From: a virus
Taxonomy: Duplodnaviria > Caudoviricetes
Length of the DNA stretch: 44,919 nt
Virus record (IMG/VR): IMGVR_UViG_3300012200_000009
Span: 1-44,919 of that record
Direction: 5' to 3' (one strand)
In this document: positions 16,307 to 19,324 of the stretch, in pieces
How the letters are laid out: each line of letters opens with the position of its first letter
Numbering within the stretch: position 1 is the stretch's first letter
Notes under the pieces: model-generated
Database searches by the model: none
Told to the model about the DNA's origin: nothing
Seen by the model: the letters and a program-made list of their open reading frames with translations, nothing else
Program-made: the position numbers and the translations under genes

Positions 16307-17677
16307 TTACATCGCTTTCTGCTGACGTGCCAGGAGCGCCGTCAGGCTATAATCATTGCCATACGCATCAGGCCCGCTTTTCGCTTTGCCATTCGTCTTT
16401 GGTATTGGCTCCTTTGCGCTCAGGTTCGGCAGCCAGCCGTAGAACTTCAAGACGGTGAATGTCTGACGCTCGAAACCGCTGAGTGACCTCAACCCCTTAA
16501 TCATGACTTCATCGCTTATATCGTCGGCTATAAGCAATGCTATGCCCTCCTTGTGTAACGCTCGCTGCCTGGCGGTGTAGGTTGTGCCACGTTCAGCTTC
16601 GATGATGGCCCATAGCTCTTTCTCACGCCGTTCTGCCTGCGCCTTGATCTGGCGTGCCGTCATCGCCATCGCGCCCTGCTGCACACTACCTGGGGGTGCA
16701 GCCGATGCAGCAGGCGCTCGGGGGAGAGTAGTCGAGATAGTTTGCTGTGTCTCGTCTACGAGTGGCGTATCTCCTCCACGACTTCGAGGAAGGTCTTCAC
16801 GAAAACCACTAGGAACGCCACTATCACCAGTGCGACTATGATCAGTCCTATCATCGCCTTGTCCTTTCAAGTTGATTGCTGGCATCTTTACGGTCTCTTC
16901 TTCCGATAGCCCTTGACTATGAGAAGAAACTACCTGTTTCTCAACATCCAACTCATGACTATGACCATATACAGGATGAGCAGGCAGATAAAGATGATCT
17001 GTATTGTTGTCGTGTCCATCGCCTTGTCCTTTCACAACTGGCATGCGTGGTTCGGTTTTGCGTACTTTCCAAACAGTATAATCAGTCACATTTTCAGATG
17101 CGGGCGCGTCAACTTCTGCGTCAGCAGAATTGACACTACCCCCGTTATTATTCTTAGTTTCTTCTATTGGTATATCTATAGGTATTCTTGCTTGCAGATT
17201 TGCAAGATCGTTCTTGTAATTTTGCAAGGTTGATCTTGCAGAATTGCTAGATGGTTCTTGCAGATTTGCAAGATCGTATGTTGCAGATTTGCAAGATTGT
17301 CCGTCTGGTAAAGCCTCTAAAGCCTTACGGATACGTTTCAAGTTTAGTTTGTATTCCATCGTGGCCTTGCCGACTGCTCGACGCTTCTCAATGAAACCAT
17401 CTTTGACCATACCTTGCAGTTCTTTATGGATTGTTCGTTCGCTGCATGCATGTCTCATACGCCGAGCCATCTCAGGAAGTGACATAAATACCCATAACTC
17501 TTTTTCGCTTCCTGTGGCCTCATACTGCTTATTGGTAAGATGTTCTAAAATTGAAGTGATGTAAGCGCGGCATACTTCATTGACACCAGGAGCCTTGAAG
17601 ACTTCGCAAAAGTCCTCTTCAAGTATGGTGAAGAAATACCCGCTTCTGTGCTGGAATACGCCATGTGTACCGCTCAT
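16307..17677 (-). CDS. replication initiator protein
   Basis: N-terminal winged-HTH-like segment, internal iterons, adjacent DnaC-like gene. Confidence 0.75.
   Translation of the reverse strand: MSGTHGVFQHRSGYFFTILEEDFCEVFKAPGVNEVCRAYITSILEHLTNKQYEATGSEKELWVFMSLPEMARRMRHACSERTIHKELQGMVKDGFIEKRRAVGKATMEYKLNLKRIRKALEALPDGQSCKSATYDLANLQEPSSNSARSTLQNYKNDLANLQARIPIDIPIEETKNNNGGSVNSADAEVDAPASENVTDYTVWKVRKTEPRMPVVKGQGDGHDNNTDHLYLPAHPVYGHSHELDVEKQVVSSHSQGLSEEETVKMPAINLKGQGDDRTDHSRTGDSGVPSGFREDLPRSRGGDTPLVDETQQTISTTLPRAPAASAAPPGSVQQGAMAMTARQIKAQAERREKELWAIIEAERGTTYTARQRALHKEGIALLIADDISDEVMIKGLRSLSGFERQTFTVLKFYGWLPNLSAKEPIPKTNGKAKSGPDAYGNDYSLTALLARQQKAM
17147..17298. repeat. replication origin: five iterons plus an AT-rich tract
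   Basis: CTTGCAGATTTGCAAG-like units start at 17191, 17213, 17235, 17257 and 17280; 17147-17190 is AT-rich. Confidence 0.8.
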
Positions 17678-17710
17678 AATATCCCCTGCTTATCTATAAA
17701 AAATGTGAAA

Positions 17711-18022
17711 TCCATGCCTTGCCCTGCCAATCCACACCTCACCTCACCTTGCCGTTGCAAACCGCACCGGGCCAAACCTTAACAGCCTCACCCGACCGCT
17801 CCACGCCTCGCATCGCAACACCGTACTAAGCCTAGCCTCGCCTCTGCATACCAATCCATACCACGCCGTTACACACCTCACCTTGCCAAACCATAGCAAC
17901 CAAGCCGCACCTTACCTGACCTGACCTCGCCCGACCCTACCGCGCCATGACTTGCCATACCAGACCAAGCCTCACCGCACCCGACCTTACCGCACCTCGC
18001 CATGCCTTAGCATCCTTACCAC
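17711..18022 (-). ncRNA. NN-GGY pentamer array 1, putative guide RNA array
   Basis: About 60 five-nt units (plus strand RCC-NN) in blocks of 14, 22, 22 and 2, separated by 4-nt units at 17781, 17895 and 18009. Confidence 0.8.
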
Positions 18023-18024
18023 AT

Positions 18025-18567
18025 TTATACCTGTTTCTCCCAGGAAGAAACAGAAAACCGACCATACTGGCCTTTCTTTGCTGGCCTGAAATCGCCTATG
18101 CCGACGAGCTTACCCGCATCTTCGAGCACTAAACGAACAAGTCTTTCACTCACCAGGTCGGTATCAATCTGTATCTGAAATCTGATAAGCCACTCGTCAA
18201 ACATCGGGCGATGACGAACAATACGCGCTCGCTGAATAACGACAGGTCTGCTATCAACATGCCATTCACCCTCTAAGGGAAGCTCAAACGGTGTAACAAA
18301 GATTGACGCTGCCATGTCTGCTGTAGCTGCTCTACGTCCGATCTTGTGGCGTGATGCAGCGCCTATAAGCGATTGTCGGATATTCTCAGCAGGATAAAAG
18401 ATACCATTTCCGTTTTGATATAAGCGGTTTGCTGCATCATCTTGTGGACTTGGCCTTTCTTTTCTGGAATGCTCGCCTGAACTAGCCGCCTCTTGCGCCT
18501 CTTCGTGAAACCTGTTGACGATAAGCGGTGTTATTCCCTCGATGCCTACGTTGATTGTTGAAATCAT
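18025..18567 (-). CDS. stand-alone Cas7/RAMP-like RNA-binding protein (Vipr-like)
   Basis: 180 aa from MISTINV behind AAAGGA. It has an N-terminal beta strand with TPL, a P-x-x-x-IR helix and a C-terminal Gly-rich loop GIGDFRPAKKGQYGRF, typical of RAMPs. Confidence 0.75.
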   Translation of the reverse strand: MISTINVGIEGITPLIVNRFHEEAQEAASSGEHSRKERPSPQDDAANRLYQNGNGIFYPAENIRQSLIGAASRHKIGRRAATADMAASIFVTPFELPLEGEWHVDSRPVVIQRARIVRHRPMFDEWLIRFQIQIDTDLVSERLVRLVLEDAGKLVGIGDFRPAKKGQYGRFSVSSWEKQV

Positions 18568-18586
18568 TTGACTATGATCTTCCTTT

Positions 18587-18653
18587 TCTTGTAACTTAGT
18601 CTCACCACAGCGGTGAAACTGCTCTTGTAACTTAGTTCCACCGTTGTGGAACT
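18587..18653 (-). repeat. tandem hairpin-plus-tail repeat
   Basis: TCTTGTAACTTAGT at 18587 and 18623, each overlapping an 8-9 bp stem-loop. Confidence 0.8.
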
Positions 18654-18657
18654 CTCC

Positions 18658-18900
18658 GCCTTGCCACGCCATACCCGACCGAACCAAGCCTTGCCGCGCC
18701 TGGCCCTACCACGCCCCACCATGCCATCCTTACCGGGCCTTACCGGGCCTCACCCTGCCAGACCTTACAATGCCACACCTGACCTCACCCGACCAGGCCA
18801 AAGCATACCGTACCTTAGCAACCGGGCCGCACCCGGCCTGACCTGACCTAACCCTACCGTGCCAGACCAAACCCCGCCCGACCTTACCACGCCTATCCTC
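18658..18900 (-). ncRNA. NN-GGY pentamer array 2, putative guide RNA array
   Basis: About 47 five-nt units in blocks of 13, 18 and 16, separated by 4-nt units at 18723 and 18817. Confidence 0.8.
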
Positions 18901-19324
18901 ACCTGCCTTGTATGATTTCCCATACTTGCAGTACACAGTTCTCCACATCCAGGTGTACTTCTGTGCCAGTAAAGCGCCAGATACGCCAGCCTAGAAGCTG
19001 TATGACTCTTGCTCTTTGTGCGTCGTATGTGCGATCACGTTTGCTGTTGTGGTATTGATGCCCGTCTAGCTCGATCACCGTCATGCTTTCAGGGTGTGCG
19101 AAATCGACACGATAGCGGTCTATGTGGTACTGGCATAAGAGTTTTATGGAAGGGAATTGCTTGCACCATTCCGCATAGAAATCTGTTTCAATTGGGCTTA
19201 TGGTGGATGTCTTCACTTCAGGTACAATGGCCTTGATTATTGATTGCCTTGCTGTACGTTGCAATGCATCATATTGATTGAAGTCTTTTAGATAGTCGTT
19301 TATATCGTGCATAGGTTTACTCAT
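18899..19324 (-). CDS. DUF559 / Vsr-like endonuclease
   Basis: YRVDF...VIELDGHQYH...D..R......GW.I.RFTG pattern. Confidence 0.85.
   Translation of the reverse strand: MSKPMHDINDYLKDFNQYDALQRTARQSIIKAIVPEVKTSTISPIETDFYAEWCKQFPSIKLLCQYHIDRYRVDFAHPESMTVIELDGHQYHNSKRDRTYDAQRARVIQLLGWRIWRFTGTEVHLDVENCVLQVWEIIQGR

Follow-up and report, generated by a model that had tools for sequence, protein, structure and literature searches.

Organization of the locus

The window (the whole stretch of 44,919 nt analysed here) is a whole tailed-phage contig with terminase, portal and tape measure genes. On its minus strand, two arrays of GGY-NN pentamers (18656–18907 and 17709–18015) flank a gene of 180 aa (18025–18567), and their step is broken six times by four-base units, which read GG[TCA][AT] in the GGY-NN frame and are spaced by 84, 94, 114 and 114 nt. 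The preliminary description had placed five such units at 17781 (TGTT), 17895 (TGCT), 18009 (TGCT), 18723 (TGGC) and 18817 (TGCT) of the minus strand, each directly followed by AAGG or ATGG, and these positions, the bases that follow and the spacings of 114, 114 and 94 nt were all exact. The sixth break, GGCA at 18904–18907, 84 nt from the next, had been missed, and it is the least certain unit because it overlaps the last codons of the DUF559 gene. The register change was –1 at all six breaks, which matches the 1-nt offset of published staggered arrays as judged from the legend of their fig. S18. The features are listed below in the direction of the minus strand.

18899–19324, minus strand: nuclease-fold gene of the DUF559 / REase_MTES_1575 type (Pfam E = 1.7e-13), immediately upstream of array 2; a possible accessory gene
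18904–18907, minus strand: four-base opener of array 2, GGCA, inside the last codons of the DUF559 gene
18824–18903, minus strand: segment T1, 16 GGY-NN units; its decoded match is the central part of an excisionase-like HTH_17 gene
18820–18823, minus strand: four-base separator GGTT (previously TGCT at 18817); appears to hold the place of one codon between the targets of T1 and T2
18730–18819, minus strand: segment T2, 18 units; fits best to the portion of the T1 HTH_17 family that comes after the T1 match; 10-nt duplication at its end
18726–18729, minus strand: four-base separator GGAT (previously TGGC at 18723)
18656–18725, minus strand: segment T3, 14 units; decodes weakly to a Cro/CI-like helix-turn-helix motif (p = 0.019, uncorrected)
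18565–18655, minus strand: structured spacer that separates array 2 from the vipr start; contains a 10-nt direct repeat and may be the 3′ tail of T3
18025–18567, minus strand: vipr gene, RAMP/Cas7-like protein of 180 aa
18012–18015, minus strand: four-base opener of array 1, GGAT (previously TGCT at 18009), 9 nt past the vipr stop
17902–18011, minus strand: segment S1, 22 units; no target family identified
17898–17901, minus strand: four-base separator GGTT (previously TGCT at 17895)
17788–17897, minus strand: segment S2, 22 units; once decoded, resembles a ribosome-binding site followed by an HTH_17 N-terminus
17784–17787, minus strand: four-base separator GGCT (previously TGTT at 17781)
17709–17783, minus strand: segment S3, 15 units, ending in GGATT and a T-rich run; no target established

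The protein encoded by the middle gene had 145 homologs, and a profile built from 101 of them matched one solved structure, SUSP1 Vipr (PDB 36pp), over 178 positions (E = 1.8e-18). Its AlphaFold model (pLDDT 91.7) found its structural matches among chains of Csm and type VII Cas complexes. The invariant residues D159 and R161 (G-loop, GDFRP) and R120 (thumb) align with D177, R179 and R138 of SUSP1 Vipr, reported from cryo-EM in the available text as the G-loop and thumb residues that read GGY (10.64898/2026.04.26.720927), and the position of SUSP1 K82 is occupied by Ser72 in the window protein. The locus is thus a VIPR locus with a Vipr homolog, a single-RRM RAMP protein with thumb and G-loop. 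It has a minimal viral form, in which tandem GGY/NN pentamers lie beside the vipr gene on the same strand, and the arrays shared the strand of the gene in 129 of the 129 unique arrays of related loci.

Of 14 related loci, 4 (L004, L005, L084 and L085) had a DUF559 homolog in the corresponding position, which makes 5 of 15 with the window. The gene is unlikely to encode a required processing enzyme, being missing from the retrieved flanks of 10 of the 15 loci, some of them on short contigs. Since the available text of the VIPR preprint assigns predicted nucleases only to the host-defence types III and V (10.64898/2026.04.26.720920), this DUF559/Vsr-like nuclease-fold gene may represent a new, phage-borne nuclease partner of VIPR. 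The host is likely a member of the Ktedonobacteria, a class name that we infer: a Vipr 68% identical to that of the window is labelled Ktedonobacteraceae, an HTH protein of the window had its sole strong match in genome G038 among 151 genomes of the Anaerolineae-containing phylum, and the class of G038 carries a gene family labelled Ktedonobacterales.

Run X3 has the array stretch in a single piece and run X4 in two overlapping ones, in both cases without any difference in sequence, and either run may be its source. No array deletions or joints were found as strain variants among the contigs of four runs. A second record of run X3 (record 2, 156 nt), from the same soil run, carries a fragment of a different GGY-NN array that resembles the end of array 1. 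No CRISPR-like array was present among the tandem repeats of the window, no cas genes were detected among 26 of the larger ORFs, and neither Cas6 nor cas1 was seen at the locus, where promoter and terminator scans scored no better than shuffles. The spacer upstream of vipr (18565–18660) presented a fold with z = –2.7, equalled by 2 of 200 shuffles. On its minus strand (18565–18655), one 10-nt sequence occurs twice, each copy after a palindromic block, an arrangement not seen after the arrays of relatives; a tail, an operator or a translation control are possible roles. Downstream, the cassette adjoins a likely replication initiator (16307–17677, minus strand) that contains about five iteron-like repeats of 22 bp (17191–17297) and is followed by a DnaC/IstB-like ATPase gene. 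Two contigs of run X6 match the start of the initiator gene and diverge at 17677–17680, so that relatives have other sequence in place of array 1.

Conservation and signature of the four-base units

Parsing of 207 loci, including the window, revealed 129 with an array, giving 129 unique arrays. The close clade, defined by a Vipr at least 53% identical, comprised 17 arrays from 13 loci after removal of duplicates, with one further locus (L086) devoid of an array. In this clade, 74 of 78 register shifts were –1, the four internal ones of the window included, and every array of at least 25 units had such a shift (15/15), in contrast with the 112 arrays of distant relatives, in which just 16 of 152 shifts were –1 and 8 of 64 long arrays had one. 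This –1 bias is far beyond chance. Many of the distant arrays part their guides by AT-rich linkers that start with a similar GG-W-W motif.

The –1 unit also carries a distinct signature. Its fourth base was A or T in 71 of 74 cases (p = 2e-14), the unit preceding it favoured AA, AT, GA or TA (56/74, with classes picked post hoc), and the unit after it began with G in 72 of 74; degenerate units, with G followed by C or T, were found in this last position in 22 of 74 cases versus 80 of 1298 elsewhere (p = 3e-9). The 3′ ends of arrays, otherwise different between loci, often read GGWTT followed by a T-rich run. Because it shares its motif with these ends and with the starts of distant linkers, the separator resembles the end of a guide with its linker reduced to zero length. 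Junctions were somewhat more unpaired than other positions (0.60 vs 0.49, p = 0.003), and no conserved hairpin or fold was found at them (MFE p = 0.26).

Comparison with the homologous loci separated what is general from what belongs to this locus in the earlier proposal, according to which regular four-base units, 114 nt apart in array 1 and 94 nt apart in array 2, divide the arrays. The –1 shift and its GG[TCA][AT] frame, which overlaps the units first described by one base, were kept; TGYT was rejected as a conserved motif, and so was 114 nt as a conserved period, since only 2 of 38 adjacent pairs of segments had equal length in relatives, against 6.7% expected by chance, and none of their 51 segments had 22 units. 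The division into guide-sized units was supported, the –1 unit being conserved in the clade, copying the array 3′-end motif and coinciding in relatives with the point where decoded matches stop. Segments of the close clade ranged from 1 to 51 units, with a median of 16, so some of them are not guide-sized.

Other array layouts were observed in the same set. Very long staggered arrays of 320 units (L095/L096, 3059–4643) and 241 units (L006/L007, 3066–4257) contain about 16 segments each, and L095 includes unbroken stretches of 36, 43 and 51 units. A locus with a distant Vipr of 36% identity (L153, from 3097 onward) presents GGAT four-base breaks every 11–13 units, which means that staggering may have evolved repeatedly or may predate this clade. 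The distant arrays of L180, L201 and L177 have repeated linkers of about 45–50 nt and are candidates for a hammerhead-spaced layout. Moreover, tandem duplications of 10–15 nt occur inside segments, often near their 3′ part (18728–18754 of the window; arrays of L001, L004 and L084), which suggests that slippage shapes guide length.

Predicted targets of the guides

In the VIPR skip rule, as given in the available preprint text, NN is read and one base, usually the wobble base, is skipped (10.64898/2026.04.26.720920), and guides were decoded here by taking each NN as codon positions 1 and 2. The NN frequencies of the arrays followed those of codon positions 1–2 in phage genes (rho = 0.65, p = 0.007; antisense 0.13). 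When 79 segments were searched in two orientations against pooled phage proteins, fits were obtained for L092 segment 0 (z = 10.2), L004 segment 1 (z = 8.9, over all 16 units), L085 segment 3 (z = 5.8, across all 16 units), L087 segment 1 (z = 3.9, on a DnaB-like motif) and L004 segment 2 (z = 3.6), the two neighbours in L004 fitting two different genes; the other 74 gave no clear fit in this protein pool. At the DNA level, a scan of the 79 clade segments against 2.7 Mb of retrieved DNA gave two matches above the null, one of them real-looking. The decoded segments at L004 3269–3461 and L085 2211–2472 correspond to homologs of genes that their own genomes contain, yet at the DNA level they agree poorly with the resident copy, a pattern that would suit the targeting of related phages.

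A homolog could be identified for only about 5 of 73 segments of relatives, and the test of segment boundaries was therefore small. A neighbouring segment continued the target at a one-codon gap in none of six tests (p = 0.35–0.90), and one of 18 neighbour-gap tests gave p = 0.015 (L087, gap 0). For this small sample, in which homologs stand in for the true targets, the decoding supports segments bounded by different predicted targets.

Regarding the six segments of the window, no exact target was found: the best full-segment matches reached 64–77%, below the published bar of at least 80% by the 1-nt skip rule, as stated in the available text (10.64898/2026.04.26.720920). Six gapped motifs of 8–9 units gave 15, 7, 6, 7, 30 and 4 matches in IMG/VR, none extending to 80%. 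The T3 motif had seven, all in one CI-like repressor family and six of them in an intact gene (20/28), and for the S3 motif the match in L397 agreed over the first 10 units and then failed. Matches within the window itself were at shuffle level (lowest p = 0.05 among six), which gave no sign of self-targeting. The T1, T3, S1 and S2 motifs were also scanned, with three mismatches allowed, in 169 genomes of the likely host class. T1 had five matches, four of them in homologous HTH_17 genes (control 0), S1 had eight versus six in the control, T3 had a single chance match and S2 none.

The matches obtained at the homolog level show wobble-aligned skips. S2 fits the start of HTH_17 excisionase-like proteins (generic profile; none of 1000 shuffles did as well; one of 24 tests on the window) as well as the N-terminus of the Ktedonobacterial HTH_17 family matched by T1 (p = 0.015), and its units before the HTH_17 start read like a ribosome-binding site, as spotted by eye. 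T3 fits the Cro/CI recognition helix weakly. From these homologs, it is predicted that three of the six guides are directed to an excisionase-like regulator belonging to a competing phage or satellite, and a fourth to a Cro/CI-like repressor.

The HTH_17 family containing the T1 matches is single-copy and near-universal in the host class (125 of 169 genomes). Its small gene, with a YVSRG motif and a W-x-P-x-V end, was also observed at L313 1417–1698, besides the class of G038, and is often mislabelled as citrate synthase. The chromosomal family itself was rejected as the actual target, since its 120 members all read YVSRG whereas the guide calls for K/N at the third position, and six weaker paralog loci and one truncated family copy fitted no better. 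Since the family is near-universal, single-copy and invariant where the guide differs, the real target of T1 is likely a mobile-element paralog of it.

T2, which had no part in finding this family, fits the 120-member profile best exactly one codon past the end of T1 (p = 0.0034 at this gap; 0.04–0.99 at other gaps; 0.097 for the best score anywhere). On the DNA of 30 family members, a 3-nt gap gave T2 a score of 14.2/36, and none of twelve other gaps exceeded 10.2. Among 58 adjacent pairs scanned for tiling, T1/T2 alone was conspicuous, though narrowly (139 against 131 for the runner-up) and in a database enriched for their HTH_17 family. It is quite probable, on this profile evidence, that T1 and T2 tile one excisionase-like gene family, with the break at 18820–18823 taking the place of one codon; we hold back from a firmer statement because the arrangement was spotted by eye before testing. 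As this break appears inside a continuous target, a separator need not mean a change of target. It is also conceivable, at rather long odds, that the separator is punctuation left while continuous rival DNA was copied into GGY-NN code, T1, the four-base unit and T2 amounting to 35 consecutive codons of one gene. If so, staggered arrays would record how VIPR guides are written, or hinged multi-filament guides would cover more than 100 bp, well beyond the published guides of 9–16 repeats. The T1/T2 pair offers a direct test case for neighbouring guides tiling one gene.

Role of the separators and relation to known systems

The four-base units very probably constitute a boundary between filaments or guides. 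Of the two options in the preliminary description, processing sites or filament boundaries, we infer the latter from the published structure, in which, according to the available text, one Vipr protomer binds each repeat, two neighbours share each GGY and assembly proceeds from the 3′ end (10.64898/2026.04.26.720927). That the units are also guide ends, where the array RNA would be cut apart, has a somewhat better than even chance, with the counterpoint that the 3′ pseudoknot tail present on type II guides would be missing from internal ones. In the mechanism proposed here, Vipr protomers would load one per pentamer, and the four-base step would break their spacing and stop a filament from running into the next, leaving bare an A/U-ending, more open junction. 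Host ribonucleases might trim the long transcript at these junctions into guides of 74–114 nt, each of which would read a DNA site of 41–65 bp, two bases in three with the wobble skipped, and silence it; the silenced sites would mostly be excision and repressor genes of a rival element.

The same boundaries could bound filaments and never be cut, each array remaining one RNA with three independent Vipr filaments joined by flexible hinges and holding several sites, or two adjacent ones, at once. The junctions present no conserved cleavage structure, no accessory gene is common to the clade (DUF559 in 5/15 loci), and T1 and T2 fit adjacent target stretches, as expected of a hinged two-filament guide. 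Against this, the two arrays are predicted to belong to a single run of co-oriented genes (DUF559, vipr and replication genes), which would call for some processing in any case; arrays of 241 and 320 units exist; and type II, ribozyme-spaced and single guides were found as discrete RNAs by sequencing, in the published text available (10.64898/2026.04.26.720920). The uncut arrangement is considered rather unlikely, guide ends being the preferred reading.

A further possibility is that the –1 units are scars of guide writing or insertion, produced by template switching or recombination at GGY and devoid of a role at the RNA level. Their invariable –1 sign and locus-specific flavour would agree with such an origin, as would the slippage evident in the internal duplications of 10–15 nt and the contiguity of T1 and T2, which resembles one copied stretch punctuated once. 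The identity of the unit with the natural 3′-end motif of arrays and with the start of distant linkers points instead to a conserved guide end, which makes pure scars improbable; scar and boundary are not mutually exclusive. Random one-base deletions in a decaying repeat, compatible with the broad range of segment lengths (1–51 units) and with an equal 114-nt spacing arising by chance, are hardly credible, being already contradicted by the one-sided, motif-bound pattern: 74 of the 78 shifts are –1, the fourth base is strongly A/T, the neighbouring units have their own signature, and long distant arrays mostly do without a –1 shift (8 of 64 have one).

In the context of known systems, the locus belongs to a very recent kind, the VIPR staggered array, sketched in a 2026 preprint whose fig. 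S18 legend describes "staggered vrRNA arrays" in which successive guides overlap by 1 nt (Yoon et al., 10.64898/2026.04.26.720920). In both cases GGY/NN arrays flank the Vipr gene, and an overlap of 1 nt is equivalent to a four-base unit given that G opens the following unit in 72 of 74 cases. The published text available shows one representative locus, without junction consensus, lengths or targets, and the layouts it confirms by sequencing are ribozyme-spaced and single guides only, staggered arrays not being among them (10.64898/2026.04.26.720920). The word "stagger" is absent from the available text of Lopez et al. (10.64898/2026.10.15.759431), as is "processing", and was not found in the available passages of the Evo-PIN preprint (10.64898/2026.10.21.760802); our literature search found no further paper on staggered VIPR arrays. 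New here are the junction consensus, guides of up to 22 units, predicted target families, the DUF559 neighbour and a likely instance in which the guides on either side of a separator tile one gene; data files published with the preprint may already contain this clade, its accessory gene or its targets. The cutting of arrays into guides and the origin of new guides are not addressed in the available text of three VIPR preprints (10.64898/2026.04.26.720920, 10.64898/2026.04.26.720927, 10.64898/2026.10.15.759431), and in this clade the boundary signal is at its minimum, the loss of a single base, for which 74 examples and a measured consensus are now available. Should that loss be enough to separate guides, multiplex VIPR arrays could dispense with linkers, tails and processing enzymes.

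Type II VIPR (SUSP1 and a Pseudomonas fulva prophage), as described in the available preprint text, shares with the window a homologous protein with the GGY-reading G-loop and thumb arginine (10.64898/2026.04.26.720920; 10.64898/2026.04.26.720927), arrays up- and downstream of the gene, a skip base on the wobble position and predicted targets among lysis-lysogeny and excision regulators. It differs in that its guides have 9–16 repeats, a range that the 14–22 units here do not keep to, and a conserved structured 3′ tail, whereas the window segments follow one another without a tail between them and the upstream gene encodes a DUF559 nuclease-fold protein. The SUSP1 guides act on a satellite excision recombinase, and in both systems guides are predicted to converge on an excision-related gene of a competitor; in the available account of SUSP1, target and effect were shown (Lopez et al., 10.64898/2026.10.15.759431), whereas here the excisionase-like HTH_17 target is predicted from homologs. 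Unlike ribozyme-spaced VIPR arrays, the window has no hammerhead between guides, for which the four-base separators leave no room. The arrays also recall a more familiar arrangement: CRISPR arrays processed by Cas6 are transcribed as one long RNA, which is split at a recurring boundary motif into guides that RAMP filaments bind. Here, too, a recurring boundary motif would part guides for RAMP filaments, but it involves no direct repeat or hairpin, no Cas6 or cas1 was seen at the locus, and the boundary consists of one missing base.
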